Shown here: positions 3,207-34,800 of the stretch, piece after piece
Layout: each line of letters opens with the position of its first letter
Position numbering within the stretch: position 1 is the first letter of the stretch
From: Candidatus Heimdallarchaeota archaeon
Lineage (GTDB): Archaea > Asgardarchaeota > Heimdallarchaeia > Heimdallarchaeales > Heimdallarchaeaceae
Direction of reading: 5' to 3'
Assembly (NCBI GenBank): GCA_016839945.1
Contig: JAEOTE010000007.1
Coordinates: 96,001 to 160,000 of the forward strand
Length of the DNA: 64,000 bases
Notes under the pieces: generated by a model
Database searches by the model: none
What the model saw: only the letters and a program-made list of their open reading frames with translations
What the model was told of the DNA's origin: nothing
Translations under genes and position numbers: made by a program

Positions 3207-3207
3207 A

Positions 3208-4059: not shown

Positions 4060-4386
4060 TTGACTACAAAAGACACTTTTCTCAATTACAAATTAGAGAA
4101 AGCTATTGCTAGAATAAAAACTCACAGTGGTTATAACAATTCTCCTGTTTTTCTAGAGGTCTGCAATTGTCCTTCAAAAGGGGGTTCTTTGTATTATGAT
4201 ACAAAAAAGCAGTCATATTTTGGTAAGGGAAGCTGCGATCGGGGATTATTATGTTCGCAAATTCAAATAGATAAGCACCAGATTCGAATCAGAAAAAAAC
4301 TTCCATTACAACAATTAACTGAAATTGCAGAGAAAGAAGAACTTAATCAAAAAATCTTACAACCTGAGCCTACTATTAGTCTTTAA
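4060..4386 (+). CDS. Hypothetical protein, Cys-containing
   Basis: 108-aa ORF from TTG filling an intergenic gap, same strand as gltX; four Cys. No family recognised. Confidence 0.45.
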   Translation: MTTKDTFLNYKLEKAIARIKTHSGYNNSPVFLEVCNCPSKGGSLYYDTKKQSYFGKGSCDRGLLCSQIQIDKHQIRIRKKLPLQQLTEIAEKEELNQKILQPEPTISL

Positions 4387-17124: not shown

Positions 17125-17227
17125 TTTTTATTTTTCTCCTCAAACGGAAAAACTTTTAAAAGTTCTTCATGCAATTTAACAATACTCAATTTACGTACAA
17201 TTGATAACTGGTTTACAGGTGAAAAAA

Positions 17228-17644
17228 ATGAGTAAAAAAGAAACAGATGAAAAAGTAGACGCAAAAGAAGAAGTCGAAGAAGAAGTCGAAGAAGAAGTCA
17301 AAGAAGAAGTCAAAGAAGAAAAAAAAGCGACTAAAAAGGCAGCTCCTAGGAAAAAAGAAGAAAGCCAAATAATCTATATCGGAAAGAAAAATACTATTAG
17401 CTATGTGCTTGTAGCAGTAACAATATTAAACAAGAGTGATACTTGCGCTATCCAGGCAAGAGGAAGACAAATTTCAAAAGCCGTAGATGTCGCAGAAATA
17501 ACTCGAAGAAAATTCCTACAAGATATGGTTGAAGTATCAAAGGTTGAAATAGGTTCCGAAGAGCTCATGAGTGATAGGGAAGGGGAAGAGCCAACTACTA
17601 AAACTGTGTCTACAGTAGAAATAGTCCTGAAGAAAAAGAAATAG
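17228..17644 (+). CDS. alba: DNA/RNA-binding protein Alba with acidic N-terminal extension
   Basis: IYIGKKNTISYVLVA, ARGRQISKAVDVAE, VEIGSEE, VSTVEIVL. Confidence 0.93.
   Translation: MSKKETDEKVDAKEEVEEEVEEEVKEEVKEEKKATKKAAPRKKEESQIIYIGKKNTISYVLVAVTILNKSDTCAIQARGRQISKAVDVAEITRRKFLQDMVEVSKVEIGSEELMSDREGEEPTTKTVSTVEIVLKKKK
17267..17320 (+). repeat. Coding 12-bp tandem repeat (gaagaagtcgaa/gaagaagtcaaa) encoding EEVE/EEVK
   Basis: Directly visible. Confidence 0.85.
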
Positions 17645-17713: not shown

Positions 17714-19123
17714 TTAGATGAAATCTCCAGTCTCAATTTTCTGAGGAAGATAGAAATTTGTTATATACTGTGGATCTCTAGCATTTAGTGCTTGTATTTC
17801 TGCTTTGTAACCACTTGAAATTAAGATTTGTAGTTGTTCTTTCCATCGGGGTTTTCTTTTAACAAATTCCTCTTCTAACATAAGTTTCGATCTATGAATA
17901 TCCTTGGCTGTCATTTTCAGTAAAGTACTTTGAGGAATATCAAAACCGCTTTCTTGGGACAAATCACTAGGGAGTAGACCTAACCATTTGATATTAGGTA
18001 CTGCAAGATGACTCGATTCAAAACTCAAAGCTTTACTTCCAACACTATAGACTCTCATGATTTCAAAACCATATGGATCAGCGTCCATAAGTGAGAATAT
18101 AGGAAGGTTCAGCTCATCATTAATCTTCTTTAGGAACTGCCTTGTTGCCACATCAGGTTGTCCTTTAGCTGTAATTAAAATACTTGGAACATAATCATAG
18201 AAGTGATCTTCAGCTAATCTATTGAAAACCGCGTCTTTTTCTATAACTAGAACCATTTCCGCATCTGTATCTAAGTCTTCTATATCATCAATATTAGGAG
18301 ATATTGCTTTTCCTGCACCAATAGCTCTACAATCAATAAAATCTCCCTTTTCTTTGAAACTAATTCTTCCAACAACAATACCTTTTGATGATGCGCTAAT
18401 ATTAAGTGAAGTACGAGTAACTTGAAGCATTGCACTTAAATCTTCTAATAGTGAATCTGAAACTGTTTGTTTTTCAAATGAATTTACATCCATGTAAAAA
18501 ACATCTCTTTTTGTGCTGTGAATATCCCTAGAAAGTAAATCATGAATTAATCTCATTATTATCGTCATTTGTTCAACTGAACTTACAGAAGCTAAGTTTC
18601 GAAATTGACGTTCTATCATTTGTCTTCCAATTAGAACCAATTCTTGTTCTTCATCAAAACCTACATTCGTTCCACTCCTTGAAGGGATGTAGAAGGAAGC
18701 TTCAGATGGGTTGGATATGGCTTGCTGAATGAAATCAAGAGAATATTCAACTAACAGATTATTAGTCTCTTCAGATGTTTTTGTTTCTACGTGAGTTACT
18801 CCATAAGGCATGAAAAATTCTGTTCTATCAACAAGATCTCTTCTTACATCTTGTACTTTCTGAAGAGAGATATTATTTTTGACGCTCACACGCATGGCAT
18901 CTTTCTGAAGAGGATATCTTGAAAGTTTTCTAGAAGGTTCTAATCTATGCCATTTCTTCCCACTTCGAAGGAAAAGAATGTAAGTTCCTCTTTTTATATT
19001 AAAAGCTTCTTTCGTCCAATTATACATTTCTCTAACTAATATTTCTTTATCAAAACTAACTTGTTTTTCTATTGCTGGTAAGATTGTTGAATTTCTAAAA
19101 ATAAAATGATAATCAGGAGACAT
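17714..19123 (-). CDS. top6A: DNA topoisomerase VI subunit A (Spo11 homolog) with N-terminal extension
   Basis: TKRDVFY (catalytic Tyr), VIEKDAVF (Toprim Glu), TAKGQPD.ATR, DADPYG (DxD), KAEIQAL. Confidence 0.95.
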   Translation of the reverse strand: MSPDYHFIFRNSTILPAIEKQVSFDKEILVREMYNWTKEAFNIKRGTYILFLRSGKKWHRLEPSRKLSRYPLQKDAMRVSVKNNISLQKVQDVRRDLVDRTEFFMPYGVTHVETKTSEETNNLLVEYSLDFIQQAISNPSEASFYIPSRSGTNVGFDEEQELVLIGRQMIERQFRNLASVSSVEQMTIIMRLIHDLLSRDIHSTKRDVFYMDVNSFEKQTVSDSLLEDLSAMLQVTRTSLNISASSKGIVVGRISFKEKGDFIDCRAIGAGKAISPNIDDIEDLDTDAEMVLVIEKDAVFNRLAEDHFYDYVPSILITAKGQPDVATRQFLKKINDELNLPIFSLMDADPYGFEIMRVYSVGSKALSFESSHLAVPNIKWLGLLPSDLSQESGFDIPQSTLLKMTAKDIHRSKLMLEEEFVKRKPRWKEQLQILISSGYKAEIQALNARDPQYITNFYLPQKIETGDFI

Positions 19124-19124
19124 T

Positions 19125-22100
19125 TTATTTTACCTCCTTATTTTTGTTTTGAGATGTTGATTTAGAAGTATTGCTCTTCGAGTTTTTTTGAGAAACATCA
19201 AGCAATGTTGTTTGTTTTCCTTTTGTTGCTTTAGGTATAGTTGCAGTTTGTTTAATTACTACTTTTGGCTTAGTTACTGTCTTAGATTTAGTTGCAGTTG
19301 ATGATTTTGAAGGTGTTTTTGCAGCTGTTTTAACAGGTTTCTTCTTCTTTGGCTTGAGTTTTGCCTTGGGTAATCTATTCTTAAGATTTTTTATTGAAAG
19401 ATAGCTAAGGTTTGTTTTCTCATCCATGTTTGTTGATGGATAGACAACAAACTCCTTGATGGTTTTGACTCCCAACACTGTTATTTGATTTCTCGCTTCT
19501 GACTCCACTTCAAGATTTCTTAATGGTTTTTCTAAGAACTCTTTTAGGTCTTTTACACCTTGTTCTTCAAGCAGAGGATTCTTTACTATACTAGGTTCTG
19601 GAAATACTAATTGTTGTATTGTTTTTATCCCAGCTTTGTTCAGCTGAGTTATTAATTCTTCACTCAGGAAAGGATGAGTTTTTCTTATTAAAACAACCTC
19701 TTTTTCTGCATCCTTTATGGAATCCTGTGTAAAGTTTGAGAAGTAAGTTCTCAATTGACTTACCTGAATCCCAGTTATTTTGGAAAGACTTTGTGCAGTT
19801 TGTGCAAAAATATCCCAAAGTGTATGAATATTGTTCTTATGAAGTTCAGCTACACTTTGTGGATTGTCACTAATTATATCACTTAGATAATAAAATGGTA
19901 AATCTAGATTTCGTTTTATCCTTGAAACCTGAATACTATTCAACTTTGAGGTTTTCACAATCAGTTCTTCGGAAACATTCAAATGTGCTATAGTTGTATA
20001 TCCCGATTTGATTAACAGTTTTCTAATATTAGCATCAAATAATCCTATTTTCTTGACACTGTAACTCTTACTCTTCAATGTTTCATTGACTAACTGGCTA
20101 TTCATCTTATCTTGAAGAGACTTTACAATTGCTTGCTCTTGTTCAGTTAGACTTACGCTTATCGCTTTTCTTATATCTGGAATTGAAACAAAATCAATAA
20201 CTTGGATTATACCTTCGTTATGGAATTTTTCCAAAAGTCTTGGTTGATTAATGAATATAAGCATTGGAGCTCTTAACTTCTCGATAATTTTCACAATTTC
20301 AGAAGAATAGTCTTTAGGATCTTTGCTTTCAATATATTCAAGTAAAATTCCTATAGTTCGAATATCTTCTTTGCGTAGGAATGATAGTATTTCTTTGTCC
20401 TTTATGAACGAACTAAGTCTCTTCTGTTCAGAAGACATCATCCTTTCCACTCTTGTAGAGGAAAGTTTAGGTAGAAGAGATGTACATGTTGTTTCATATT
20501 CTATTTCACTTAATGATTTACAGTAAATTAAGAAATCAAAAACAGTCTGAAGCTTCATCTTATTCATTAAGTCATAAATCTTCTTATTTTCTCTAACAGG
20601 TGGAAGAGAAAAAAGATCAGTTTCTACCATGTTCTTTAATGAATCTGAGGTCTTCCAAACACTGCTTGTTTTTGATTTAGCTTGTTTATTGAATACAAGC
20701 GCTTCTTCAACTGATAGGATAAAACCTTTCTTAAGGATGGAAATATTGCTTCCTGAAAGTAAATCTTTAGGTATGCTTGTTAGGCTTCCTTCCAACTCCT
20801 TCAAAGTAATTAATGAGATATTCCTTAGATTTCTTAGGAAAACTGGATCAGGGATTTGGCTCTTAATCTTATTATAATCCTCTAACAATAATTCGTCTAT
20901 ACTCCTATAGGGAAGTTTTGAGATGATATCAACTTTCAACCTGTTTGGTTGAAGTAGGATTATTGTTCTTTTTAGATGATATGAGAGTTCATTATACTTC
21001 TTGCTTATCTTAGAATGAAGCTTTGAAATTGTTTTATTATAGAGTTCTTTTTCATGTTTTTGCAATAACAAAAGGTATTCTATTGAGGAATCTGACATAT
21101 CAAGTTTTTGATCTTTTGATTCAAGATTTAATACTTGCATCAGAGTTATACCTTTATTGAAAATAGAATTAATGGCATTTTGAATATCTTCTCTTTGTTT
21201 TTTGGTTACACTTATCTTATTGAGATTCATTGATAAATATGCTAAATCTAGTAGATTGAGAGAATATTCAGTTTTTGATACTAAATCCTTAAGCACTAAC
21301 TTTTCAAATACTTTTATTTTATCAAGTAAATAATTAGGAATCTTATCTAATGATACTTCTTCATCAAAAAGATCGGAGTAATACTTGATACTTCTCTGAT
21401 TTAGAATCGCTATATCCTTTGCAGAGAATATCTTACTTTCTTTTATCACTGGATGGCTTCCAAAATTACTGCTTGTTAAAGAGTATCTTATTTTTTCAAC
21501 TTCTGCTTGTTTTAATAAGAGAATTGAAGCAAGTTCTTTGTTAGTTAATAGATAAAATTCTTCTAAATTCTTAACATAGTTCTGTATGTTTTTCCAACTC
21601 TTAATTGTAACATCAGGAAGGAGTAAAAGCTCAATGGGTAGTTTTAGAATTCTCTTTATTTTGTTTGCCAGAGATTTGGAAAATGTGAACGTTTCTTTGT
21701 TTAAAGCAAAAATCAAATCATCCATTGTTGAATAATGTTTCTGAATTTCTTTCTTTGTTTCAGAATCGAAAATTTTCACTCTGCTTAACTGTACTTTCTT
21801 CTTAACATCTGTTTCAATTTTCTTGTAAGTTAGTGAAGAGGTAATTTCTAGGATTTTATCTTTCAATTTAGCAGGGGACAATATCATCCAAGAAGAGATG
21901 GGTTTTATTATGAGATCTCCTATAGTGTAAATACTCTTATCTTCTAAAATCTGTAGATCTGCCTTTGTTAGAACAGCGAGTGAGGAAATGGGTTTGGAGA
22001 ATGTTTGTTCAATTTTGAGACCCAAATCCGATAGTGAATCCTCTTTTTGATATAGTGTTGTTATTAAATCCAATATACTCTTAATTTTTGTTGTTTTTGT

Positions 22101-25100
22101 TTTCTTTGTGAACAATTCTTTAACATCGCTTTCCTCTATGTATTGATCTTTGGATATATAATTAGCTATTATACCTTCTTTTGATGCTAAGTAGTCTCCT
22201 AAGAATCCAACAATATTTGCTTTTTCTGTAGCATCACTTGTTTTCATTAAATCTCGAAAAGTTACTATTCCAGAATCTAAATAGTTGCTTTTTATTTCAT
22301 TTAGATTCTTTTGATTGATTTTTGGATAATAAAGGACAGAAGTGTTATAGACTTCTTCTGCTTTATTTTGAATTTGTTTAATCTTTTTCTCTGAAACTAA
22401 CCAGTCGTAAATTGTGTTATTCATTAAATCCTCGAGATTGTAAATTCCTATAGATTTCAGATAATTTCTGTCTTGAGCTGATAGGAAGAAAATTTCTTTC
22501 AAGTTTTGTTCTGCAACGGAATCTATTCGTTGAACAATCGAATCTACTTTGAAATTCTTAATAGTATTTTGAATAGTTGTGACTTTTACTTTTGAAGTAG
22601 TTGCAATAACTTTAGGAGATAGATAGAAGATATCTGCAATAATATTAACACCTGCAGATTTCATTTTCTCTAAATCTTTAGGATCAAAATCTAGAAAGCG
22701 TAGATTCGCCAATAAATATGGAGTAATTTTCTTGAAAATGACTTCATCATCTTTGAATGTAGGTGATGTCAATATTGATTTGTATGAAGAATATCCTTTG
22801 TTTGATAAATCAACTTCTAATTCGGATAATGGTTCTTTAAATCCCTCTTCTTTTATACCTTTTATTAACGAGAGAGAGAGAATAATTTCATCTTGAATAT
22901 TCTTTGGTAATTTATTAAGGAATATCAAATGCTCAATGATGGTTGTGAACCCTTTTTCATAACAATAATCTAGTGACTCTTTTGTTATTGAGGATAAATA
23001 GCTGATATTATTGGATAATTGACTTCTGTAGTCATCAACTTCTTTTCCTTTTACTTTACTATTAGTTACGATATGACTAACAGGAACGAAGAAAAGATGC
23101 TCAACTGTTGTTATACCTATTTGAAGGAGAGAAGTTGCTGTCTTCTTTGGTAATCCCAACATTTCAATTGAGATACCAAACTTATCAATTTTCTTCAGGT
23201 TTTTAACAAGATAATCTGGTTCTTCTTTCTGTTTTGTAATAAGCTTACTAAAACTTGCTGGCCAATTCTTCTGAGGTATAGCTAACAAATCGTTATATGT
23301 TGTTATATTACTATTTAACAAGTCTTTAATTTCTGTATCTTTCAGCTTTAATGATTTTCCAATTAACGTTATTGGGGTTAATAAAATAGAGATGAGTTTT
23401 ACAAGATTTTTCTTTTCCTCAATAGGTATTGGTATTAAATCAAGATTAAGCTCTGATGCTTGAACTAGAGATACACAACCATACTCGGAAAGAATGGTTT
23501 TGGTTTCCTTTGTTATTTCAGAGAATAGGCTTAAATCAAGACCTATTAATTTTACATTTTCTTCTAATGATTTAATATCAATAGTTGTTTTAATGGTCCT
23601 TATTTTTTCTTCTGCAACATTGATTAGTTTGGCTAAGAGTGGAGCTGGAATGAGAAGGAATTGGTAAAGGTTTCGAATGCCATTGTGTTTTAGTTTTTCT
23701 ATTTGTTTGGAAGTTAGGTTACCTATATAGGATAATGGAATACTTTTTAGTGATAGAAGTAGAGGGCAAACTTCTGAGAGTAATTCTCTTTTTTCTACAA
23801 TCTTACTATCTAGTGATAAAAGCTCATCTAGATAGAGTATTTTTTCATCCTTTAATCTCTTAATAAGAGCTGAATCTGAAACAATCTTAATATCAGAGAG
23901 TTTGATCGCCCATTCTGGAGGGCTTATCTGTATAACTATACTATTAAGAACCTCTACTATTTTAGAATGCAGATCATGATTTTCCTCTTTCTCTGATAAA
24001 CATAATAATCCTGATACAATGTTGTTACAATCGCTTTGAGACAAAATATTCAATTGTGCAATGTTAAGCTCAACGTTAGAAATGAGCCATGAAATTGGCT
24101 TAAACATATTTGAAGTGATTATTCTGATTAATGATTTCTCGATATCTCCAAAATCAAAAACTGGGTGAGGTATGAAATCTACTAATAATAGAGCACTTGA
24201 TAATCCATATTTCATAAATTGTTCTTCTGCTTTATTTGGAAAGGAGAGAGCATGATCAATATAGTATGAAAATGTTTCTGACATTCTTGTACTCAAATTA
24301 AATTCTCTTTGGAATATTCTTATTTGCTTTGCTACAGCTTTTGGTATACCAATTATTGTGTTGACATTTGTTGAGAGAAGTTCAATAACATGTTTAATAC
24401 CATTATTCCATAGAACTCCTTTAGAAGAAATATCAAAACCTGGTAATGCAAGAACATTCAAACACAGAAAGCTAACTAATTGTTCAATAAATGCTATGCT
24501 TGAGATTTTTTCTATTCTTTCAGATTCTGATAGTTGTAGCAGTGCATCTGGGATAAAACCAAATATATCTTCTACAGCTTTTTTTGTTGGATCGAATTCA
24601 AGAGATTTAAGCAAGTTGATTATAGGTTCGTTAAGGGTTAATGTTCTACCTTTTGAAAGTGTGAAAGTGCCTTTCCTAGCTGAACTTATGGTTTTTGGAA
24701 TTGAACCATTCAAGGCTCGTTTCAAATCCTTATCTGAACAATTAAAGAGATCAATCAACCTCAGAATTCCTTCACTAGTTAAGTTTAGTTTCTCCTCTGA
24801 AGATAACTCTGAAATTCGGTAAATTGAGATGTGACACGCGTTTAGAAAATCTCTCATATAGTCCCCAGAGACACTCAATGTAGGATATGCTTGATAATTT
24901 GAACTATACAAATCTTGAACATGTATTTTTCCAGATTTAAGTAGAGAATTAATTTTTCCCTTTGATAAAACAAAGAAGTTTACTAACTCGACACCTTTTC
25001 GTTTAACTTCTTTCATCAAATTAGAAGGAGTGATTTTGTCCAAGTATGTTTGCACTTTTTTCTCTGACATGTTTAGTAAAAGAGAGATTGTAGAAACATC

Positions 25101-28100
25101 CTCTGTAATAAAGGAGAGGATATCACCTACACCTGAATATATAAGCTTCATTACATGATGATTATCTAAACCAATAAAAGCTACAGAAGAGCGATATAGT
25201 TGCACTTCTCTAAAGATATCTAATCGAACTAGAGCAGGACGAGATTCTCTTATTTCTTCCATTCTTGATATAAAGTCTTGTACGGAGTTGATACCTATAT
25301 CTAGTAGTTTTTCGAGATAATCTTCCTCAATTGAAGGACAAACAGTAAGAGGTATAGCAGAACTAATTCTTCTTTCTGATAACTCATCGAATGATATGAG
25401 ATCTAGTGCATGAAACTCTTTGTATATTGGATTTTGCGTAATTGTAAATAACTCATCTCTATTCAATAAAGCAAGATCTATAACGGAATTTATTTCATGA
25501 TACTCCAGACGTTTAATTTCATCATAAGATAGAAAGCCTATGAATCGGATTGAGCCAGATAAGAGTTCTTTTGCTTTCTTATATACGTCAACTTGAAGTA
25601 TTTCAGAGATACCTAACAAAGATGCTGAATAGAAGAGAGTTTCAATATCTGTAATCCCTAAATCTTTTAGCTCATCTAGTTTTTTCTCTGGTATTAGTTC
25701 TGATGGTCTTATTAAGTGAGATTGTGATAAACGGAAGGACACAATATCGGTGTAGGTTAGACCTTCTTTTATTTCTCTTATTTGTTTCTGGGAAAAACCA
25801 GAGATTTCTGAGAGTTGCTTTTCTGGAAGTGAGAAGAAATCAATCAATGTATTAATTGAAGATTTGCTCAACTTGAGAGTAAGTTCTCTTGGAAGCCCCA
25901 TGGAAGCTATTGGGATTGCTAATTCCATTATTAGTTTATTAAGAGAGTCAGTCTCCATTAAACTTGAGAAGAAAGGCGAGAGGGCAGAATGTTCCTCCAG
26001 ATTTATTTCAAATACATCACCAATTATGACGTTTTTGTATTCTTCTCTACGAGCTTTTCTGATCTTAGTGAAGAAGGGTGTGATTCTAAGAGGTAACTCT
26101 AAAATTGATCGAATTAATGTTAGATTATAATGATCTGTAAGGTATTGTTTGTCTTTACCAGTTAAGTCTTTTATAACTTTTGGATCAGTAATAACATCTG
26201 ATAACGTTTTATTTTCTACTTCTTGAATAACCCTGTTGAAATATGATGAATTATATACAGATGCAGGTAGTTTAGCGAAGTAATGGAAAGCTTGCATTAC
26301 TATTATTTTTGAAGAATATGTAGAAACAACTCTGTAAAGCACTGGGTCTTTAAGATCTATATCAGGAATGAAAAGTAATTGGTAAACATAATGGATATCA
26401 TTTTGTTCTAAAACCTCTAATGAAAATTCTGAAATCTCTGTAAAAATCTTCAAAGGTAAGGTGAGGTATTTCTTAACAGCTGATATCTTTATCCACAATT
26501 CTGGATTAGAGAAATAATACTGTTCTTCTATAGTATAGAATATTTCTTGAATTGTTTGGAATCTTTCAAAGTGGAATATTGAATCTTTACTCAATAATCT
26601 TTGTTCAAGTTTATCAAACAATTGAGTTTCAAAAGCAAAAATACCCTTTTGTTCATACATTGCTTGAATGCTTGAGGATGTCAGAGAAGTTATTATACTT
26701 TCAGCATCCTTTGGAGAGATTTTTATGAGTTTGCTTAGTTTTTGAGATGATGCAAGAATAAACTCAGATATTGTTTTTATTCCATTTTCTCTTAGAATTT
26801 CTGTTTGACTAAATGAGAGCGATGGTAAGAAATAAACAGGTAGTGAGAAGTAGCCAAATATATCTGAAAAGTCTAAAGCACTTTTTATTGTTTCAAATCT
26901 TTCATCTGGTATTCCTGTTTTTTCCATCAGAACTTCAGGAGAGGATAACATAAAACCAAGTAAAGTCCTTATTTTTGCTTTTTCTAATAGTTCTATGATT
27001 TCAGGATCTAGCATATCAGAAATATGATCCAAAGATAGATTCAAGATAGCTTTAAAGGATTCAATAACATCCCATGGTAAAATTTCCTCATTCCACTTAT
27101 CTTTTGAAGTTGAGAAGTATAAATCCTCAATTGTCATTATGTTATTTTCATCCAACACTCTGACAATTCTAGGTTCTAATATTCCTAATTCAGAAAGGTC
27201 AATTCCAGTATCACTTATTCTAACATTCCTTTGAAGAAGTATAGCTTCTTCATTATCTACTCCTAAGAAAGAAGCAATATCTTCAGATTTACTTACTAGT
27301 AAATCAATAATTTTAGTGATTCCATTATTTCTCAAAATGTTGAGTTGTTGGGTTGTCAAGGTTCTAGTTTGGACCTCTTCTATTTCTTGTGTTTCTTCGG
27401 ATTCTTCAACTTGAACAGTTTTCTTGATGATTTTCTCCCATGTTACTAGTGTTAAAGGAGACCTCAGTAGCTTTCTGAACTTATCAATGACATTCCAGTT
27501 AACTACTGCTGAAGAAAAAGTGAGAGGGTGGGCTAAGTAAAAAATCTTATCCACTGTATCATAGCCAGAAAGTATTAGTGATACAATTTCGTGTGAAGAA
27601 AATCTCTCTGATTCTTCGTATTCAAATGATATTAGAGAAGTATATTTATTTCCTGATTTTTCAAAGAAATGAGTACCTTTTTTCTCAATTGCGAAAACAT
27701 CTATTAATTGCTGGGTTTCTTGAGTAGACCTTACTAAAGTAGCTGCTAACTCATCAATAGTATATTCAAATAATTGATGAATAGCTGTTATCCCTCTGTT
27801 CCTTAATTTATCAAAATCTTCAAGAGTTAACTTACTTATTCTAGAAATTGGTAAACCTAGAGTTTGAACGAATTCATCATATTCACTAATTAGTAAGATT
27901 TCCTTACTAAATTGATCAGTTTCTGAAAATGTTCTATTCTTGATATTATTGTGAAGCTCAATAACAAGTTTTCTTTCTTTAGCAGTGTTTAACTCAGATT
28001 CAATAATTTCTGGAATAAGATCTAAAAATTGTCTTACTGTTACAATATTTCTTAATTTCAAACGAAGAAGAGCTTCTGTAAGCAGAGATAAATCCTTGAA

Positions 28101-31100
28101 TTTGTCTGGATATAGTTGAGTAAGTTCGATTATTTCCATATTCGCTAATTGATTTAAATGTCGAATATTTTCCCAAAAACCTGTATTCAATGTTGGTTTT
28201 TCAGTAGGGTAAACACTGTATAGATCTTGGATTGTTAGGTTATGTTTTTCTATGAATTGAACTAATCTTGGATATTGGTTACTAAGTAAACTCAAACTCT
28301 TTCCAAATTCTGTTCTATTCTTTTTTACTTCTTCTTCACTTATTGATTGTTTTAAATCCTTTACCCTTTCTTCTGATATGTTTAATACATCAGATAAATC
28401 AGAATTAGACCAGATTGAGAACCTGCCAATACAGTTTATTCCTATTTCTTGCAATAAATATGATTGCCTTCTTAATGAAGGAAATGCAAAAGATATAGGA
28501 GTTAATAAAAGATTTGCAGTTTCTAGATATGTTCTTTTTGCTTCTCCTGTTAGATTGTAAGCTTCAGGAGGATTGTAAAAAATTTCCTCAATAGATACTA
28601 TTCCTGCAGTTTTTAGTGTTTCTTGATGTTTTATCCATTTGAATATTGGAGTTCCAAGACTCTTTTTTATTCTCTCAACATCTTTTTTTCTCAAACCTAA
28701 CTTTCTTAATTGAGGTGATGGAAATGCTAAGAATGCAGTAGTTGTAAAAATTTGAAGATTAACTAATTGTTGCTCAATATCCTTTGGTATTACTTTAACG
28801 TGAGACAAATCTTTATCTTTCTTTGACTCTCGAATGTGAGATATTAATTTGTGTTTTGATTCCTTGAGTAGTAGATCACCTATCAATTTGTAATCTCTTT
28901 TCAAAATTGATGCTGTGGGTAAAGAGATTAGGTTAGTAAGAGTCTTTATACCTTTTTGAGATAGAACCTTTATGGCTTCTGTTTCCTCTTCCCTAAGTAT
29001 TTCATCAGAAATTAACTCAAATTTAGATAGTTCAATAGATTCTGAGGATTTGACTAGAGTATCTAGAAAGGTATTGTACAAATTCCTCTCTAGTTCCTTT
29101 ATTACAACAAGATCATCTAGTTTAGCATTAATTAAATCCTCAATTGTTTTTATTTTTCTTCTATGAAAAGCGTTCTTAGTATAAGCATCTGTCCAATCAG
29201 GTTTCATCTTAGTTACATTGGTCTTAGAAAATGTAGGAAACTTATCACATAGTTGAGAAAAAATATTTTGCAGGTAATTAACTAAAACAGCTGTTACTTC
29301 TGTTTGATAGTTTACTGAATATGGTAATTTTGTTTGGTAAAGAAATTCTTCAATGGTTGTATCTTGAGATATCAAACCTTTAGAATTATCTTTTAGATAC
29401 TCAAAAGTTGGAAATAGTGTATCTATTTTTATGTCATCAACTTTGGTGAGTGAAGCCAGAAGTTGTTTTCTTTTTTCTGATTTAGCTTTACTTGTTTTAT
29501 CCTTGGTTAGTAAGTACTGATGAAGGAGCTGTTCTTTTTTATTTTCGAAAAGTTTCTCTAGTAATCCAGTAACTGTTTGTAGTTTGTTAAAATCTGTAGC
29601 GAAATAATGGTAACTGTTTTGTATCCATCTTCGATATAAAGCCTCTTTTAATGTGATTATAGTTTTTTCATTTTGAGTAAATCTTCTTTCTATAGTTCTA
29701 CTTACAAAGAGTTTAGGATCAAAACTAGGGCTCATTCCCTCTCTATCAAGTTCAGATATCGTTCTAAGTTTGATATTGTAGATATCTTGTTTAGTAAGTT
29801 CTAACAGTTTTGCTATATTATCAGATGGTGTTATGAGAAAATCAGAAATAGATTCAATATTGTTTGTTCGAAGAACTGATTGAATTCTTGATGGACACCA
29901 TACATTAGCACCAAATAATCTTCTTCCCAAAGGCATGAAGAGCTTAACTTTTTTTGTTGCACCATGAGCCAAGGCCGCAGCAATTCTGTCAGTTTCTAAC
30001 CTAAAATCAGTATAATTAACTGCTTCATCTTCTAAAATTTTTGTTAGATTATCTATGATTATTGGTGCAGATCTTACAAAGCGTGATAATCTTGCATGCT
30101 CTCTTCTTCTTCTTTTAGCTCTGCTTAAAAATGTCTTTAGTCTTCTCCCCAACTGCATTAATGCTAATCGTATCTCTTCCTCAATCTCAGGAACAATGGA
30201 TATATATTCTTTACTTGTTTCTGGAAAAGGAATCTTAGTACTTACTACTGATACAGCTACAGCTAGAGGATCAGATTGCCTTGTTAACCCATATTCATTC
30301 CATCTTATTGAAGAAACAGTATGAGAAATAACATCGTTCCCTGCTCCAAATATGAGTGGGATACGATTTGCGTACCTATAAATTATTTTATTATCTTGAA
30401 CGGTAGCTCCCTTTACTTGCGAAGCTTCATTTACTCCCCCTCCATAACCTATTGCTACTTCTACAACAAAGGGATGACCAGAATAAGCTTTAGGAGCTCT
30501 TGTTACAGCTTCTACAAATTTAGGTTCCAGTTCTTTTTCTAAACCCCTCCTTAATCTATTCGATCCTAATGGTGATAAAGCAGTACCTTTTGGATCATCA
30601 AACTGAAATATTCTATCTCTTTTTCTTTTAACATCTTTCGCTTCTTGGTAAGCTTTTACAAAACCTTCATGAACTATTCTTCTGATTTCGTGAGAGGTAA
30701 TATCTTTTGGAGATTTGTTTGGATCAATCTCTAAAAGTTGGAAGAAACCTTCTGCTATTTCCTCATTTACTCCCATGAATTGTGTTGCTAGAAATTGCTT
30801 GAGTGTTTTGCTTTGACTTGCAGTTAATTCTGCCTTGAACTGAGTAATATCACACCCCCATGGATGAATTTTAACTGGTTGAGGAGGGGGAGGCATATCA
30901 TCTACAACACTAAGAAAGTCCAGATCTTCATATTCACCTTCTTTATCTGCAGGAACTTTGATTTTAAAACTGGAATAAGGGGTAATAATTGCTAATTGCT
31001 TAAAATATTCTTTTACGCTATTCTTAGCAAGCCTCCATGCTCCTGTAAAAGTGATTGATATTTCTGTTCCAGGTTCTTCAAGATAGTTTGGATCTCCTGG

Positions 31101-31637
31101 TAGGTACTCACGTTGTTCCATGATTACAGGTTCGTTCTTTTCAAGATTTATCATTAAATGAAGCTCATGGGTAATATCATCCATAAAGTATCTGCTTCGT
31201 ATTTTTGCAGGTAAGTCAACAGATGACATAGAGTATAGCAAACACATTTTTGCTCCTAAACCAAAACGACCTCGTGTTTGAATTACTCCGTATTTTGTTC
31301 CAGTCAATACTCTCCCAAAAAGTTCAGCAATCTGGTGTCCAGGAACTCCTATCCCATTATCTTTACAGGTTAGTTGTAGAAAATCTAGATGCTTTTCTAA
31401 TTTTCTGTATTGCGTAACATCAAGCAATTCATTTATTTCTCTGCTGGAAAGTTTTCTTAAGTCTAAATCAATAACAGGATTAATTCCTCTTTTTTCTGCT
31501 GCATCTAGTCCATTCTCAACTAACTCTCTGATACTTGTGAAAACAGCTCTCATTGAATTACCAAAACCAGCAATGGCTCTGTTTTCATTAAAGAAAGCAG
31601 CAGCTGACATTTTTTTTGTAACTGTATCTTCTGACAC
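19125..31637 (-). CDS. top6B: Giant DNA topoisomerase VI subunit B fused to a ~3500-aa array of HhH-like repeats
   Basis: First ~540 aa: FFNENRAIAGF, RELVENGLDA, KDNGIG, TRGRFGLGAK, PGTEI, H2TH, RYANRIPL, STKIPFPETSKEYI. Uninterrupted 12.5-kb ORF from GTG 31637. Confidence 0.92.
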   Translation of the reverse strand: MSEDTVTKKMSAAAFFNENRAIAGFGNSMRAVFTSIRELVENGLDAAEKRGINPVIDLDLRKLSSREINELLDVTQYRKLEKHLDFLQLTCKDNGIGVPGHQIAELFGRVLTGTKYGVIQTRGRFGLGAKMCLLYSMSSVDLPAKIRSRYFMDDITHELHLMINLEKNEPVIMEQREYLPGDPNYLEEPGTEISITFTGAWRLAKNSVKEYFKQLAIITPYSSFKIKVPADKEGEYEDLDFLSVVDDMPPPPQPVKIHPWGCDITQFKAELTASQSKTLKQFLATQFMGVNEEIAEGFFQLLEIDPNKSPKDITSHEIRRIVHEGFVKAYQEAKDVKRKRDRIFQFDDPKGTALSPLGSNRLRRGLEKELEPKFVEAVTRAPKAYSGHPFVVEVAIGYGGGVNEASQVKGATVQDNKIIYRYANRIPLIFGAGNDVISHTVSSIRWNEYGLTRQSDPLAVAVSVVSTKIPFPETSKEYISIVPEIEEEIRLALMQLGRRLKTFLSRAKRRRREHARLSRFVRSAPIIIDNLTKILEDEAVNYTDFRLETDRIAAALAHGATKKVKLFMPLGRRLFGANVWCPSRIQSVLRTNNIESISDFLITPSDNIAKLLELTKQDIYNIKLRTISELDREGMSPSFDPKLFVSRTIERRFTQNEKTIITLKEALYRRWIQNSYHYFATDFNKLQTVTGLLEKLFENKKEQLLHQYLLTKDKTSKAKSEKRKQLLASLTKVDDIKIDTLFPTFEYLKDNSKGLISQDTTIEEFLYQTKLPYSVNYQTEVTAVLVNYLQNIFSQLCDKFPTFSKTNVTKMKPDWTDAYTKNAFHRRKIKTIEDLINAKLDDLVVIKELERNLYNTFLDTLVKSSESIELSKFELISDEILREEETEAIKVLSQKGIKTLTNLISLPTASILKRDYKLIGDLLLKESKHKLISHIRESKKDKDLSHVKVIPKDIEQQLVNLQIFTTTAFLAFPSPQLRKLGLRKKDVERIKKSLGTPIFKWIKHQETLKTAGIVSIEEIFYNPPEAYNLTGEAKRTYLETANLLLTPISFAFPSLRRQSYLLQEIGINCIGRFSIWSNSDLSDVLNISEERVKDLKQSISEEEVKKNRTEFGKSLSLLSNQYPRLVQFIEKHNLTIQDLYSVYPTEKPTLNTGFWENIRHLNQLANMEIIELTQLYPDKFKDLSLLTEALLRLKLRNIVTVRQFLDLIPEIIESELNTAKERKLVIELHNNIKNRTFSETDQFSKEILLISEYDEFVQTLGLPISRISKLTLEDFDKLRNRGITAIHQLFEYTIDELAATLVRSTQETQQLIDVFAIEKKGTHFFEKSGNKYTSLISFEYEESERFSSHEIVSLILSGYDTVDKIFYLAHPLTFSSAVVNWNVIDKFRKLLRSPLTLVTWEKIIKKTVQVEESEETQEIEEVQTRTLTTQQLNILRNNGITKIIDLLVSKSEDIASFLGVDNEEAILLQRNVRISDTGIDLSELGILEPRIVRVLDENNIMTIEDLYFSTSKDKWNEEILPWDVIESFKAILNLSLDHISDMLDPEIIELLEKAKIRTLLGFMLSSPEVLMEKTGIPDERFETIKSALDFSDIFGYFSLPVYFLPSLSFSQTEILRENGIKTISEFILASSQKLSKLIKISPKDAESIITSLTSSSIQAMYEQKGIFAFETQLFDKLEQRLLSKDSIFHFERFQTIQEIFYTIEEQYYFSNPELWIKISAVKKYLTLPLKIFTEISEFSLEVLEQNDIHYVYQLLFIPDIDLKDPVLYRVVSTYSSKIIVMQAFHYFAKLPASVYNSSYFNRVIQEVENKTLSDVITDPKVIKDLTGKDKQYLTDHYNLTLIRSILELPLRITPFFTKIRKARREEYKNVIIGDVFEINLEEHSALSPFFSSLMETDSLNKLIMELAIPIASMGLPRELTLKLSKSSINTLIDFFSLPEKQLSEISGFSQKQIREIKEGLTYTDIVSFRLSQSHLIRPSELIPEKKLDELKDLGITDIETLFYSASLLGISEILQVDVYKKAKELLSGSIRFIGFLSYDEIKRLEYHEINSVIDLALLNRDELFTITQNPIYKEFHALDLISFDELSERRISSAIPLTVCPSIEEDYLEKLLDIGINSVQDFISRMEEIRESRPALVRLDIFREVQLYRSSVAFIGLDNHHVMKLIYSGVGDILSFITEDVSTISLLLNMSEKKVQTYLDKITPSNLMKEVKRKGVELVNFFVLSKGKINSLLKSGKIHVQDLYSSNYQAYPTLSVSGDYMRDFLNACHISIYRISELSSEEKLNLTSEGILRLIDLFNCSDKDLKRALNGSIPKTISSARKGTFTLSKGRTLTLNEPIINLLKSLEFDPTKKAVEDIFGFIPDALLQLSESERIEKISSIAFIEQLVSFLCLNVLALPGFDISSKGVLWNNGIKHVIELLSTNVNTIIGIPKAVAKQIRIFQREFNLSTRMSETFSYYIDHALSFPNKAEEQFMKYGLSSALLLVDFIPHPVFDFGDIEKSLIRIITSNMFKPISWLISNVELNIAQLNILSQSDCNNIVSGLLCLSEKEENHDLHSKIVEVLNSIVIQISPPEWAIKLSDIKIVSDSALIKRLKDEKILYLDELLSLDSKIVEKRELLSEVCPLLLSLKSIPLSYIGNLTSKQIEKLKHNGIRNLYQFLLIPAPLLAKLINVAEEKIRTIKTTIDIKSLEENVKLIGLDLSLFSEITKETKTILSEYGCVSLVQASELNLDLIPIPIEEKKNLVKLISILLTPITLIGKSLKLKDTEIKDLLNSNITTYNDLLAIPQKNWPASFSKLITKQKEEPDYLVKNLKKIDKFGISIEMLGLPKKTATSLLQIGITTVEHLFFVPVSHIVTNSKVKGKEVDDYRSQLSNNISYLSSITKESLDYCYEKGFTTIIEHLIFLNKLPKNIQDEIILSLSLIKGIKEEGFKEPLSELEVDLSNKGYSSYKSILTSPTFKDDEVIFKKITPYLLANLRFLDFDPKDLEKMKSAGVNIIADIFYLSPKVIATTSKVKVTTIQNTIKNFKVDSIVQRIDSVAEQNLKEIFFLSAQDRNYLKSIGIYNLEDLMNNTIYDWLVSEKKIKQIQNKAEEVYNTSVLYYPKINQKNLNEIKSNYLDSGIVTFRDLMKTSDATEKANIVGFLGDYLASKEGIIANYISKDQYIEESDVKELFTKKTKTTKIKSILDLITTLYQKEDSLSDLGLKIEQTFSKPISSLAVLTKADLQILEDKSIYTIGDLIIKPISSWMILSPAKLKDKILEITSSLTYKKIETDVKKKVQLSRVKIFDSETKKEIQKHYSTMDDLIFALNKETFTFSKSLANKIKRILKLPIELLLLPDVTIKSWKNIQNYVKNLEEFYLLTNKELASILLLKQAEVEKIRYSLTSSNFGSHPVIKESKIFSAKDIAILNQRSIKYYSDLFDEEVSLDKIPNYLLDKIKVFEKLVLKDLVSKTEYSLNLLDLAYLSMNLNKISVTKKQREDIQNAINSIFNKGITLMQVLNLESKDQKLDMSDSSIEYLLLLQKHEKELYNKTISKLHSKISKKYNELSYHLKRTIILLQPNRLKVDIISKLPYRSIDELLLEDYNKIKSQIPDPVFLRNLRNISLITLKELEGSLTSIPKDLLSGSNISILKKGFILSVEEALVFNKQAKSKTSSVWKTSDSLKNMVETDLFSLPPVRENKKIYDLMNKMKLQTVFDFLIYCKSLSEIEYETTCTSLLPKLSSTRVERMMSSEQKRLSSFIKDKEILSFLRKEDIRTIGILLEYIESKDPKDYSSEIVKIIEKLRAPMLIFINQPRLLEKFHNEGIIQVIDFVSIPDIRKAISVSLTEQEQAIVKSLQDKMNSQLVNETLKSKSYSVKKIGLFDANIRKLLIKSGYTTIAHLNVSEELIVKTSKLNSIQVSRIKRNLDLPFYYLSDIISDNPQSVAELHKNNIHTLWDIFAQTAQSLSKITGIQVSQLRTYFSNFTQDSIKDAEKEVVLIRKTHPFLSEELITQLNKAGIKTIQQLVFPEPSIVKNPLLEEQGVKDLKEFLEKPLRNLEVESEARNQITVLGVKTIKEFVVYPSTNMDEKTNLSYLSIKNLKNRLPKAKLKPKKKKPVKTAAKTPSKSSTATKSKTVTKPKVVIKQTATIPKATKGKQTTLLDVSQKNSKSNTSKSTSQNKNKEVK
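19380..29920 (-). repeat. Protein-level array of roughly 50 degenerate L-x-x-x-G-I-x-T-I-x-x-L (RadA-NTD/alpha-CTD-like HhH) modules within top6B
   Basis: Examples: VLSQKGIKTLTNLI, TLKTAGIVSIEEIF, KLRNRGITAIHQLF, ILRNNGITKIIDLL, ILRENGIKTISEFI, ELKDLGITDIETLF, KLKHNGIRNLYQFL, QLNKAGIKTIQQLV. Spacing ~55-80 aa; count by eye. Confidence 0.8.
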
Positions 31638-31801: not shown

Positions 31802-34800
31802 TTATTTCTTTTTCAATTTAAATTCTGGAGAAGTTCTATGAAGTACAACTGAAGTTATAGCAAAACCTATTGTAACAAAGAATAATGCACCAAAAGCTCC
31901 TATAGTTCTTGAAGTATCAACTTTATCTATTTCATCCAAGAATTGACCTTTTATGTCATCATAATATACTTCAGTAGCTATAGTTCTGTCATACTGCCAG
32001 AATAGACTACTCATGTCACCAGCAAAACCTGGATTTCCTTGATGCCATGTAGGATATTGATGAACTTTATCAACATGCATTGGATTACTGCCATATTTTG
32101 ATGGATTTAGGAGTGAGAACATTTCTACGTGTTGTTCAGCTCTAGAGTTATAGTCTAATCTGTCCTTTCTATCAACAACAGTTCCAGTTTCTCCTTCTAC
32201 TAGCATTTCAAGCTTGTGTTGAGGATCAGTAGTTCTTCCAGGTAAGGAGTTTGTTAAATGCACATCAGAAGGTTTCAAACCCATATTATGCATTTGATCC
32301 CAAATACCTGTGTAGATAAAGGTTGTATTAATAAAATTAGCTGCGGTCATCCAATAGGTTTGTTCATTGTATGTTTCTTTTACTGGAAAATCAGATTGAC
32401 AGAAGTAATAAAACACTACTTCATCATAGTACAAAGCGTAATCGTTTGCTAGATAAACAAAAGGTCTAAAGAAAGATTCAAACCATTGATTTCGTTCTCC
32501 TCCTTCTATTTGAGGATAACCTATGAATGAATCATATGTTGAATTGTAAACTGCTTCTTCTTGTAAATAAGGCCAATATTCAAATTGAACTTTCGAATGG
32601 GCATACCAACATTCTAAGTATGTATGAAGCTCATCTTTATTTTCGAGAGTGAATGTTTCTGATACTGGTTCTATTTGGTAGTGGATTAAACCTTCAGAAT
32701 AATCTGCTAGGTAAAGTTCATTTCCATCTGCATAAACTCCATAAGCTTTTCCTAGGTGATCAGATCCATTAAGTCGATAAAGCTCCGATGGAGAGCTTTT
32801 TGATGACACATTAACTACTGTGAGCCCATCTTCTCCTTGTGTTAGGAAAACTTTGGTTGAATCAATGTAGAGATTATTGTAATATGATTCACTTGGATCG
32901 AAACCATACTTCCCTTCTAGTGTAAGGTCAGCTCCAATACTGAATATAAGTAATCCTTCTACTTCATCAAGTACATAGAGATATGAACCTTCAACCTTTA
33001 AATCAAGGATATTATTAAGTTCAGTGAAGTTTGCTGAATCATAATGCTGATACAGTTCATCAGGTTCGAAAGTCAGGCTGTCTAATCGGACGATATCTAT
33101 TCCATCAGTCCCCAAACCAACATAAGCATTTGTTCCACTTACAGCAATAGATAATGCATCTCCTGAAGTTTCATTAAATGTAGAAAATGTGTTACTTAGC
33201 GTACCATCATCTGAAATCCCTACAGATGTAATACCATACTCCCCATTGGCAATATAAAGATAATAAGTAGGACTAGTGGTGCCAAATAAACCATAATCAA
33301 TATCGTGCATATCAGCTCTTCCATAGTTAGTCCATTGTTCCAATTCTTCGATGAATACAGGTTCAGTTGCATTCAGGACTTCTAAACCTCGTTCTCCTTC
33401 AGTTGCATAAATAATAGAGTCAATAACTGTAAGTGAAGTTACTTCTCCTGAATAGTCTCCATATTGTCCTACTGCTAAGAAAAGTGGATGAGTTGTATTT
33501 ACAATTTTAATATCATTTTTACCTTCAATTACATATGCCATTCCGTCTTTAACAAAAACATCCATTGATTTTGATCTCTCAAAAGAAGGAATATTGCCAA
33601 TTGCCAAGATTTTACCTACATCTTGAATATTATTTACTCCAGTTCTATGAGCATAATAAAGATCGTTGTTCCAATCGACATCTGTTGATTCAAGAGTTTG
33701 ATTAACAATCAGTGGAAACTTTTTATTTCCTAGAAGGACATCTTCAACACCAGTTAACCATTCTAGTGTTGTTCTTCTACAAACGTATGAGATTTGATTT
33801 TCAAATAACCAGTTGAGTGAAGGTTTTCCTAAGAGGAAATTCATATATTCAGCAAATGATTTTGCATGAGTTTTTTCAATTTCAGTGTCAATACCATATA
33901 TATCTGTTAATAATTGCTCTACATCAACTATTAAATCATCAACAGCTGTATAATCCAACCCTCTAACTAGATCTAAGAAGAATTTAGCAGATCCTTTATC
34001 ACCAGTTAAAATTGAATAATCTTTACCATTATATGTAGCATTGTATAAGATCCTGTAACTTGTTGCTCTGTCAAAATCTAAATCTGGAAAAGCAGGACGA
34101 ACACTAATCCAATTGTGTGGTATGTAAGTTCCTATATCTATTAAATTTTCTTCGTTTGCAAAGGTTTGGTTTAATACAATAGAAGCTAAATCTTGATCGC
34201 TATAACCAAAACTATCTTTAAAACCAAGTAGTTCTTGTTGCAGAAGATAAGAAGCAACATAAGCTTGGAAACCGTATTCGGTTCCATTTCCAAGATGTTC
34301 TAGATAATAAGGCCACATATAATTGAAATTTAAAACATATTCGTTTCCAGTTAATTCTGATGAATCTTGGTTTAAGATATATTGTTTTCTTTTAGTAAAA
34401 ACAACATAATCATCTTGTCCCTCTACTGAACTAAATTCTTTAACGGTTTTGTTAATAATAACATCGAATGTTAAATCTCCTTGAACCGTTATGTATCCTA
34501 TACGAGCATTATAGTCTACAAATGCTTCCCTATCACTCACATTATAAAAAGTAAAAGTAGCTGTATTATAATATCTTGATTCATTGTTTTGAACTCCCAT
34601 ATACATCCAATCTGAAAAATCGTCGGATCCTGTATAGGGTACAATATCATCTTCACTAATTATTCCATAAGCAAAAATTCTTTCAGTAATCTCTGCCATG
34701 CTGATTTTTGATCTTAAAGGTAGTAAGATACCCATTGCTATTGAAGATCCTAATGTTACAATAATAATCATTGCTCCTAATGCGGTTCTTAATCTAGCTT

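Follow-up and report, generated by a model that had tools for sequence, protein, structure and literature searches.

A giant topoisomerase VI B subunit with a long array of helix-hairpin-helix-fold modules and a probable sliding-clamp docking motif in Heimdallarchaeia

Introduction

The locus described here raises the question of whether a topoisomerase VI B subunit (Top6B) of ~8 times the usual size, in which a canonical core is followed by a huge C-terminal extension, is a genuine protein, and what that extension might do. In archaea, decatenation is mainly the work of topoisomerase VI, from which the meiotic Spo11 machinery descends, and Top6B has hitherto been treated as a protein of 500-680 residues. 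The gene is found in a window of 64,000 nucleotides (positions 96,001 to 160,000 of contig JAEOTE010000007.1, assembly GCA_016839945.1), the whole stretch of DNA that was analysed, from a member of the Heimdallarchaeia, a class of archaea regarded as the closest to eukaryotes.

Known Top6B C-termini are either a short helix or an Ig-like CTD of ~100 residues (PMC9348778, PMC11302465), and the Asgard TopoVIB has been marked merely as 'CTD +' (PMC9665070). No description of a giant Top6B was found in the literature searched.

Results and discussion

The top6B-top6A locus

The top6B gene is a single frame of 4170 codons plus stop on the reverse strand (19125-31637), with a GTG start and zero internal stops, in agreement with the uninterrupted 12.5-kb ORF of the initial annotation (Table 1). 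At 31% G+C, a chance origin of an open frame of this length is impossible. The ATG of top6A is located one base beyond the top6B stop, and the two genes would be co-transcribed, probably with translational coupling. The initial annotation had left open whether a second, normal-length top6B exists in this genome; none was found, PF09239 giving one match only in the 88% complete genome. The giant gene encodes the sole Top6B detected, and we take its product to be the working ATPase (B) subunit of the single topoisomerase VI in this organism.

Table 1. Features of the top6B-top6A locus (positions in the window; aa, residues of Top6B unless a protein length is given)
Feature	Position	Strand	Residues	Remarks
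top6B	19125..31637	(-)		4170 codons; stop at 19125-19127
GHKL ATPase domain	30948..31613	(-)	aa 9-230	2zbk_B alignment; motifs E38, N42, D93-N-G-I-G, G-loop 123-128; weak HATPase_c match
H2TH domain	30669..30869	(-)	aa ~257-323	aligned to the 2zbk_B H2TH stretch
Transducer domain	30096..30593	(-)	aa 349-514	PF09239; W-x-x-Y at 446, switch lysine K476
Basic helical linker after transducer	29898..30095	(-)	aa 515-580	
Arm	19353..29897	(-)	aa 581-4095	~45-55 degenerate (HhH)2 / alpha-CTD-like modules; almost all helical; net -5
Acidic arm block, best conserved	25038..28037	(-)	aa 1201-2200	net charge -47 here
Long beta-hairpin insertion between modules	27360..27446	(-)	aa 1398-1426	DSSP of AF2 model
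K/S/T/P-rich basic tail	19128..19352	(-)	aa 4096-4170	net +19, pI 10.8
PIP-like island Q-T-T-L-L-D-V-S	19191..19214	(-)	aa 4142-4149	
top6A	17714..19123	(-)	469 aa (protein)	TP6A_N (7.8e-21) and Toprim (1.1e-59)

The catalytic core

Residues 1-540 form a complete canonical core consisting of GHKL, H2TH and transducer domains, as had been proposed from the motifs, all of which are found in their expected places: RELVENGLDA at 37 (E38, N42), DNGIG at 93, GRFGLG at 123 and ETSKE at 473 (K476). Residues 9-534 can be aligned over their entire length with Top6B of S. shibatae (2zbk_B, 530 aa; E 1.4e-84), and the core also aligns with that of M. mazei (2q2e_B, 621 aa; E 2.7e-63). The catalytic glutamate E38, the Mg-binding asparagine N42 and the G1 and G2 loops are all aligned to 2zbk_B, K476 corresponds in this alignment to the switch lysine of S. 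shibatae, and a W-K-x-Y-type motif (W-N-E-Y) is present at 446. Furthermore, the Pfam family Topo-VIb_trans (PF09239) matches the transducer at 2e-54 (184 bits, cut-off 24).

The Heimdall protein thus has the same three domains, catalytic Glu and Asn, G-loops, switch lysine and Top6A partner as canonical archaeal Top6B, but differs in having minor insertions within GHKL and ahead of the transducer, and ~3,600 extra C-terminal residues that make up the arm and the tail. The 401-600 bin, which spans the linker, has a net charge of +10 to +18 in all orthologs.

Repeat number and fold of the arm

The arm comprises ~3,500 residues, in which sequence profiles pick up 31-35 modules of ~55 residues each. 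Thirty copies score above the best of 20 shuffles with a self-built repeat profile, and hhalign on the family alignment gave 44 alternative alignments, ~32 of them with a probability >20%. Tallying profile matches and hairpin signatures gives ~50 modules (range 43-55), close to the roughly 50 repeats first proposed; the spacing of 55-80 aa proposed along with them holds for the clean stretch 1269-1660. From AF2 models of 581-1780 and 2881-4080, which together take in 2,400 residues of the arm, a total of ~45-55 modules is estimated. Iterating a family-wide profile drifted to a double unit of ~120 residues, and the counts obtained from it were discarded.

Both AF2 models are confidently folded (pLDDT 85.8 each, pTM 0.58 and 0.50) into HhH/SAM-like modules, with ~62% helix, ~83 helices per 1,200 residues and disorder at residues 714-725 alone. 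The model of 581-1780 also contains beta insertions at ~1325-1345 as well as the long hairpin listed in Table 1, so that the arm is not purely HhH.

Pfam matches above the gathering score, which concern the best-preserved modules only, were obtained for RAD51D_N (95.2 bits, cut-off 27.3, 4 stretches), HHH_5 (43.3 bits, cut-off 27) and RNA_pol_A_CTD (39.2 bits, cut-off 23.8); the last two families had been singled out for comparison in the initial annotation. VIA-align revealed a five-helix module with two helix-hairpin-helix units, matching RAD51-paralog NTDs, the AF1548 C-domain and alpha-CTD at Z 6-8.3 and rmsd 1.7-2.9 over 56-64 residues. The highest values were found for the RAD51-paralog NTDs 9q25_D (Z 8.3, rmsd 2.2 over 60), 8gj9_B (Z 7.7) and 8faz_C (Z 7.5), followed by the alpha-CTDs 8w9z_A (Z 6.6) and 1z3e_B (Z 6.0), and SAM domains and alpha-CTD match arm modules at Z 5-7. 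A Z below 8 is only middling on its own, and the assignment agrees with the Pfam matches: the arm modules have the five-helix fold of RAD51-paralog NTDs, RNA polymerase alpha-CTD and SAM-like domains.

The best single-module matches in both sequence and structure are the RAD51-paralog/RadA NTD and the bacterial or plastid RNA polymerase alpha-CTD; the matching families also include HHH_XRCC3_RpoA (PF26169). These domains share with the arm modules the five-helix unit and the first hairpin, L-x-x-x-G-I-x-T-I-x-D-L. Whereas RAD51-paralog NTD and alpha-CTD domains occur singly in their proteins, the arm chains ~50 modules, most of which lack the glycine of the second hairpin. The resemblance to the RadA NTD noted earlier holds for the fold but not for the sequence, since the RadA of the window reaches 0.9 bits with the module profile, its NTD going undetected; the RadA NTD was rejected at the sequence level as source of the modules. 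In the rest of this genome the module profile had no other match.

Whole-model Foldseek searches against the PDB, which are uninformative for a multi-domain query of 1,200 residues, gave nothing at E <= 0.001. Their top rows (E 0.1-1) are alpha-solenoids (Pds5B, CRM1) and topoisomerase V.

Charge of the arm and the question of DNA binding

The arm was at first viewed as ~50 DNA-binding or DNA-wrapping modules. An HhH-fold array in a genuine type IIB subunit is borne out by the analyses above, whereas the charge and the hairpins speak against a continuous DNA-binding surface. The arm has a pI of 6.9 (5.1-5.8 in other families), and the modules have a mean net charge of 0. Its best conserved part is the acidic block of 1,000 residues at 1201-2200, for which positional orthologs were found in giant Top6B only among 1.84 billion representatives, and conservation is higher where the charge is more negative (Spearman -0.60, p 1e-4). 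The charge landscape along the protein is kept in 12 of 13 orthologs (r 0.57-0.93), including conserved basic patches in the arm at ~801-1000 and ~3201-3400. No conserved basic column was found in the logo of 32 aligned modules. The hairpin-1 glycine is present in ~21 of these 32 and that of hairpin 2 in ~6, so that the G-h-G glycines for phosphate contact are not found throughout the arm; the many second hairpins reported initially are present as a fold, though mostly without their glycine. Because the arm is neutral to acidic, we do not take it as a DNA-binding array. HhH motifs contact DNA via backbone amides, and some modules of a neutral arm may therefore still bind DNA.

These observations bear on the comparison with topoisomerase V of Methanopyrus kandleri, which has 12 (HhH)2 domains and is, to our knowledge, the only topoisomerase described with a long tandem (HhH)2 array. 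By analogy, many modules of the Top6B arm could bind duplex DNA without sequence preference and wrap, bridge or slide along it, serving processivity or the capture of a second duplex. The modules fold like (HhH)2 DNA-binding domains, the conserved basic patches would provide contacts, topoisomerase V is among the weak Foldseek rows (8df9_B, E 0.3), and a shorter relative of 1,123 aa keeps canonical HHH_5 (94.7 bits), IMS_HHH and DUF4332 matches, from which it follows that the ancestral short arm was probably DNA-binding. However, the near-neutral arm with its acidic best-conserved block, the lack of a conserved basic logo position and the scarcity of the second-hairpin glycine argue against this explanation, and no significant sequence or whole-model match to topoisomerase V was obtained (Foldseek E 0.3-1.1). 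The two enzymes (8df9 and 5hm5 for topoisomerase V) are alike in the array itself, but topoisomerase V is type IC with an unrelated catalytic domain, whereas the catalytic part of the giant protein is Top6B and its modules number ~50. We regard a topoisomerase V-like arm as rather improbable.

The basic tail and PCNA

The initial annotation overlooked the basic tail, which carries an invariant PIP-like island and is predicted to dock on PCNA. The tails of 17 family members are low-complexity and otherwise only 25% identical, but the Q, T and L of the island are invariant, with the consensus [KR]-Q-x-T-L-x-[DE]-h. In the present protein Q4142 and L4145 are found, and positions 7-8 of the island are V-S (in orthologs, M/L/I followed by a small residue). 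The PIP box has been defined as QXXhXXaa, with two aromatics, and an archaeal consensus peptide is K-T-T-Q-S-T-L-D-S-F-F-K (PDB 1RXM; both PMC4929162). PIP-box clients dock in the hydrophobic pocket beneath the interdomain connector loop and pair with the C-terminal strand of PCNA. The Top6B tail and these clients have in common a Q-[ST]-T-L near the C-terminus after a basic run, and the model described below places the tail in the PIP groove; the aromatic pair of the clients is, however, replaced by [DE]-[VMLI], and the motif Q-x-x-[LIM]-x-x-[FY]-[FY] does not occur in the tail. Other giant Top6B clades end in canonical or near-canonical PIP variants (Q-K-S-L-N-A-F, Q-K-S-L-D-E-Y, V-D-K-F-F and L-D-S-Y-M). 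No PIP-like island was found by regex in the last 220 residues of 13 proteins from Kariarchaeaceae, hence clamp tethering cannot be the universal or original role of the arm.

A predicted complex of the tail with the organism's own PCNA reached an ipSAE of 0.79 (0.79, 0.83 and 0.79 in separate runs), compared to 0.02 for the best of 3 controls; of 80 solved complexes 58 attain this mark, as do 2 of 110 mismatched pairs. At least 52% of contacts recur between runs, with a partner pLDDT of at least 48, the partner's own fold being uncertain. In the model, tail residues 4134-4148 face PCNA residues 41, 44-48, 130, 204-208, 231-234 and 250-257, the residues of the classical PIP groove. Likeness to the many solved PIP-PCNA structures may lie behind the score. 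The model and the invariant island suggest that the tail probably carries a sliding-clamp docking motif. In Pyrococcus abyssi, Topo VI subunits co-purified with PCNA, RFC and NucS (PMC4929162); a description of topoisomerase VI as a PIP client was not found in the literature searched.

Proposed function

The gene with its intact core, the module fold, the conservation under purifying selection (see below) and the charge pattern are established, and on this basis we propose that the arm is a long spacer or scaffold by which topoisomerase VI is tethered both to DNA and to the sliding clamp, a reading drawn from sequence and structure prediction to which we give roughly even chances. The ~50 modules, ancient and diverged, would pack as one continuous folded chain ending in the disordered basic tail, and would act mainly as a length-constrained spacer or scaffold. 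DNA contact would most likely be confined to the post-transducer linker, the two basic patches of the arm and the K/S/T-rich tail. The tail island would be a degenerate PIP box docking on PCNA, so that each A2B2 enzyme could have two long arms anchored to sliding clamps, at or behind replication forks. Such anchoring would keep a weakly DNA-binding decatenase near the crossings and precatenanes made by replication. Should the link to the clamp prove true, a type IIB topoisomerase would for the first time be seen directly coupled to the replisome, and Asgard archaea would provide a tractable case of eukaryote-like size and regulation being added onto core DNA enzymes.

Distribution, selection and evolution

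The suggestion that Asgard genomes be searched for Top6B of >1000 aa proved fruitful, since such proteins are found across Heimdallarchaeia as single-frame orthologs. Their length is ~4,200 aa in Heimdallarchaeaceae (4,140-4,341 aa within the family), 3,500 in Kariarchaeaceae and 2,300 in Hodarchaeales. The arm has a dN/dS of 0.07-0.14, indicating purifying selection. Few indels interrupt it, and it stays colinear between orthologs as little as 38% identical, which together with the lengths found in the family speaks for a constraint on its length; between orders, its proximal part can be followed colinearly to residue 1600-1965.

These data are also relevant to a scaffold independent of PCNA, in which the SAM / alpha-CTD-like modules of the arm, the conserved acidic block in particular, would attract partners such as the basic chromatin proteins (histones, Alba), or link several enzymes in an assembly resembling a chromosome axis. 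SAM domains and alpha-CTD are classical protein-protein modules, and their structural matches to the arm, the rise of conservation with negative charge, the colinearity of the proximal arm across orders and the presence of an arm without PIP-like island in Kariarchaeaceae are all consistent with this explanation. Against it, the module profile matches nothing else in the genome, and a scaffold is compatible with the clamp tether rather than exclusive of it. As a separate explanation we find it unlikely.

An artefact or a decaying gene, that is a chimeric assembly or a nonfunctional fusion of Top6B to a repeat protein, is already refuted by the comparative data, in line with the initial annotation: uninterrupted frames of like length occur in >40 independent assemblies, including the closed genomes G045 (4185 aa), G046 (4305 aa) and G057 (2312 aa), public databases hold 78 giant forms, dN/dS is ~0.1, and no DNA-level repeats were found within the gene, leaving nothing there to mislead an assembler.

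The eightfold enlargement of Top6B is thus conserved and strongly selected in a class thought closest to eukaryotes, with an arm that grows clade by clade, and core-trimmed phylogenies and structural surveys of Top6B miss 85% of the giant protein. Returning to the clamp-tethered spacer, a bolder form of it, which we put forward tentatively and hold to be rather doubtful, would be a length-calibrated topoisomerase VI with two rigid arms of ~0.1 micrometre (estimated from the module count) tied to PCNA on newly replicated DNA, the acidic mid-arm docking chromatin proteins. This enzyme could be a prokaryotic forerunner of the scaffold-associated, replication-coupled type II topoisomerase function of eukaryotes, its arm having lengthened in steps (1.1, 2.3, 3.5 and 4.2 thousand residues) in the lineage nearest to them.

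Stand-alone or split arm proteins were considered as well, as P0086, P0096 and others match the acidic block without a Top6B core. No evidence for a split form of the giant Top6B was found among these candidates; the two core-less matches that were inspected proved to be fragments truncated by the contig, and top6A follows one of them.

Topoisomerase core

The giant protein is an intact topoisomerase VI B subunit. Its residues 9-534 can be aligned over their whole length with Top6B of S. shibatae (2zbk_B, E 1.4e-84) and M. mazei (2q2e_B, E 2.7e-63), and the Pfam family Topo-VIb_trans matches at 2e-54. The ATPase residues are present (catalytic Glu38 and Asn42, D93-N-G-I-G and the glycine loop at 123), as are the H2TH stretch, the W-x-x-Y at 446 and the switch lysine K476. 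It is the sole Top6B in the genome, an assembly of 3.0 Mb in 186 contigs that is 88% complete. GyrA, a type IA topoisomerase and one PCNA are encoded there as well; a type IB topoisomerase was not found in this assembly.

Structure and charge of the arm

The core is followed by an HhH-fold arm (residues 581-4095) that is folded, under purifying selection and strongly conserved in length. Past residue 580, Pfam matches were obtained to RAD51D_N (four stretches, 95 bits), HHH_5 and RNA_pol_A_CTD. A self-built profile found 30 copies of a unit of ~55 residues that outscored all 20 shuffles, and hhalign of the family alignment gave 44 alternative alignments, ~32 of them with a probability >20%. 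The module consensus reads L..e.le.L..nGI.TI.dLf..p...L.k.l.l..k.i..ik..L. Combining profile matches and hairpin signatures, we estimate a total of ~50 modules (range 43-55). The profile matched nothing else in this genome, and its nearest PDB sequence match was the alpha-CTD (E 0.002-0.06).

AlphaFold2 models built with ortholog alignments covered residues 581-1780 (model A; pLDDT 85.8, pTM 0.58) and 2881-4080 (pLDDT 85.8, pTM 0.50). Both are confident throughout, even where no repeat is detectable in the sequence, with disorder limited to 714-725, ~62% helix and ~83 helices per 1,200 residues. In a structure search other than Foldseek, single modules matched the N-terminal domains of RAD51 paralogs (Z 8.3, rmsd 2.2 over 60; 7.7; 7.5). 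They also matched the AF1548 C-domain, the alpha-CTD of RNA polymerase (Z 6.0-6.6) and, at Z 5-7, SAM domains. On their own these Z values are middling, but they are in line with the Pfam matches. Model A also contains a small beta unit (~1325-1345) and a long beta hairpin; in the otherwise helical arm, these insertions adjoin invariant tryptophans of the family alignment.

The initial annotation had proposed ~50 DNA-binding modules that wrap DNA. The module count and the fold hold, whereas DNA binding or wrapping by all modules is not accepted as the default, although a few may bind DNA. The arm is neutral (net charge -5, pI 6.9; modules average net 0), and of the 32 aligned modules only ~6 retain the second-hairpin glycine; the alignment of these 32 has no conserved basic column. 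Arms in other families have a pI of 5.1-7.3. The charge pattern is conserved among orthologs, with basic stretches at 401-600, 801-1000 and 3201-3400 and an acidic block at 1201-2200 (mean net about -41 over 1,000 residues) that is the best conserved part of the arm; conservation falls as net charge rises (Spearman -0.60, p 1e-4). It is these features that argue against a wrapping array, and a DNA-binding arm like that of Topo V seems unlikely to us. The strong scores of a 1,123-aa relative on canonical HhH families suggest that the ancestor was DNA-binding and that its descendants kept the fold as the array grew longer.

The C-terminal tail and PCNA

The giant Top6B ends in a basic tail (4096-4170; K/S/T/P-rich, net +19) with a conserved short motif. 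In 17 family tails, elsewhere only 25% identical and of variable length, the island [KR]-Q-x-T-L-[LMD]-[DE]-[VMLI] is fixed (here Q4142-S4149). It resembles the core of the archaeal PIP consensus peptide, Q-S-T-L-D-S-F-F (PMC4929162), but lacks the aromatic pair. End motifs of other giant Top6B clades, some of them canonical, include Q-K-S-L-N-A-F, Q-K-S-L-D-E-Y, V-D-K-F-F and T-L-E-E-F-M. A pattern search over the last 220 residues of 13 Kariarchaeaceae proteins gave no PIP-like motif. The extreme C-terminus in Hodarchaeales is L-G-[RQ]-L-D-[SA]-Y-M, and R-L-R-R-K-x-D-V-h-G-[RQ]-L-D-[SA]-Y-M is nearly invariant in P0037-P0066, Top6B proteins of ~2,315 aa from this order; this end looks PIP-like, with an aromatic residue but without the glutamine.

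A complex of the PCNA of the same genome with tail residues 4126-4170, both supplied as alignments, was predicted with an ipSAE of 0.79 (0.79, 0.83, 0.79) versus 0.02 for the best control; 58 of 80 solved complexes score that high, versus 2 of 110 mismatched pairs. Contact agreement was at least 52% and partner pLDDT at least 48. The modelled interface joins tail residues 4134-4148 to PCNA 41, 44-48, 130, 204-208, 231-234 and 250-257, the classical PIP groove. Since many PIP-PCNA complexes are already solved, the model indicates likeness, not binding.

We give roughly even chances to a reading in which the arm serves mainly as spacer or scaffold and the tail tethers the enzyme to PCNA and to DNA. 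This would keep a decatenase of weak DNA affinity near the crossings generated by replication. A protein scaffold independent of PCNA and centred on the acidic block is improbable, and would be compatible with a spacer arm and a PCNA anchor.

Distribution and evolution

The giant Top6B is real and ancient, and an artefact can be dismissed for practical purposes: whole-genome scans found single open frames of 4,140-4,305 aa in six genera of the family, including two closed genomes, and the gene has no direct or tandem DNA repeats. G+C is ~31% throughout. Sister families have Top6B of 3,473-3,587 and 4,244 aa, another order 2,312-2,346 aa (including one closed genome), and one family 1,108-1,155 aa plus a second copy of ~500 aa. 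In most of the phylum's remaining classes the protein spans 500-680 aa; two exceptions measure ~2,290 and 1,353 aa. The genus with two Top6B genes is represented by genome G072 (loci L033 and L034; same class, different family). The ~500-aa protein of this genus clusters with a short form of a different class; the 1,108-1,155-aa protein matches canonical HhH families and branches as sister to every longer form with an arm. In the core tree, of few taxa and midpoint-rooted, all arm-bearing forms are one clade (100/100), nested by rising length.

By BLAST across orders, the proximal arm is colinear to residue 1,600-1,965. Within the family, indels in the arm are very rare even where identity drops to 38%, and dN/dS is 0.07-0.14 in the arm, compared with 0.02-0.13 in the core and 0.29-0.57 in the tail. 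Residues 1201-2200 had 34 matches among 1.84 billion protein representatives, all giant Top6B or core-less fragments. The core-less proteins gave no evidence of stand-alone arms: both of those examined are cut short by contig ends, and top6A follows one of them.

Giant Top6B proteins are already in public databases as 'DNA topoisomerase VI subunit B' (~4,200 aa in Heimdallarchaeaceae, ~3,500 in Kariarchaeaceae, ~2,315 in Hodarchaeales). Full-text literature searches found no description of the giant form, the HhH arm or the PIP-like tail; Asgard TopoVIB is tabulated only as 'CTD +' (PMC9665070).

Gene neighbourhood

The ATG of top6A lies one base from the top6B stop, making a tight top6B-top6A pair, to which the Alba gene is convergent. 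Top6A has TP6A_N and Toprim domains, and the late onset of its 5Y-CAP domain implies that its N-terminus is considerably extended; for residues 1-181 the only match was a weak one to the ubiquitin-like FERM_f0, below the cut-off (E 0.006).

Features of the top6B region and its surroundings
Feature	Position in window	Strand	Remarks
top6B	19125..31637	-	single 4170-codon frame, GTG start; stop 19125-19127
Long beta hairpin of arm	27360-27446		P0001 (giant Top6B) aa 1398-1426; AlphaFold2 model A
Top6A	17714-19123	-	469 aa; 5Y-CAP domain begins only at residue 183
Alba protein	17201-17644	+	147 aa; Alba domain 57-119 after ~56-residue N-terminal extension
Three tightly packed genes	12399-17124	-	591-aa protein, small GTPase, HEAT-repeat protein
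1000-aa protein	31802-34804	-	directly upstream of top6B; weak LVIVD-repeat match only
RadA	7728-8843	+	~60-residue K/T/P/E-rich basic N-terminal extension ahead of HhH N-terminal domain

In the three-gene group, the 591-aa protein had no Pfam match, the GTPase is Ras/Rab-like (199 aa) and the HEAT-repeat protein has 785 aa. The N-terminal extension of RadA is similar in composition to the Top6B tail.
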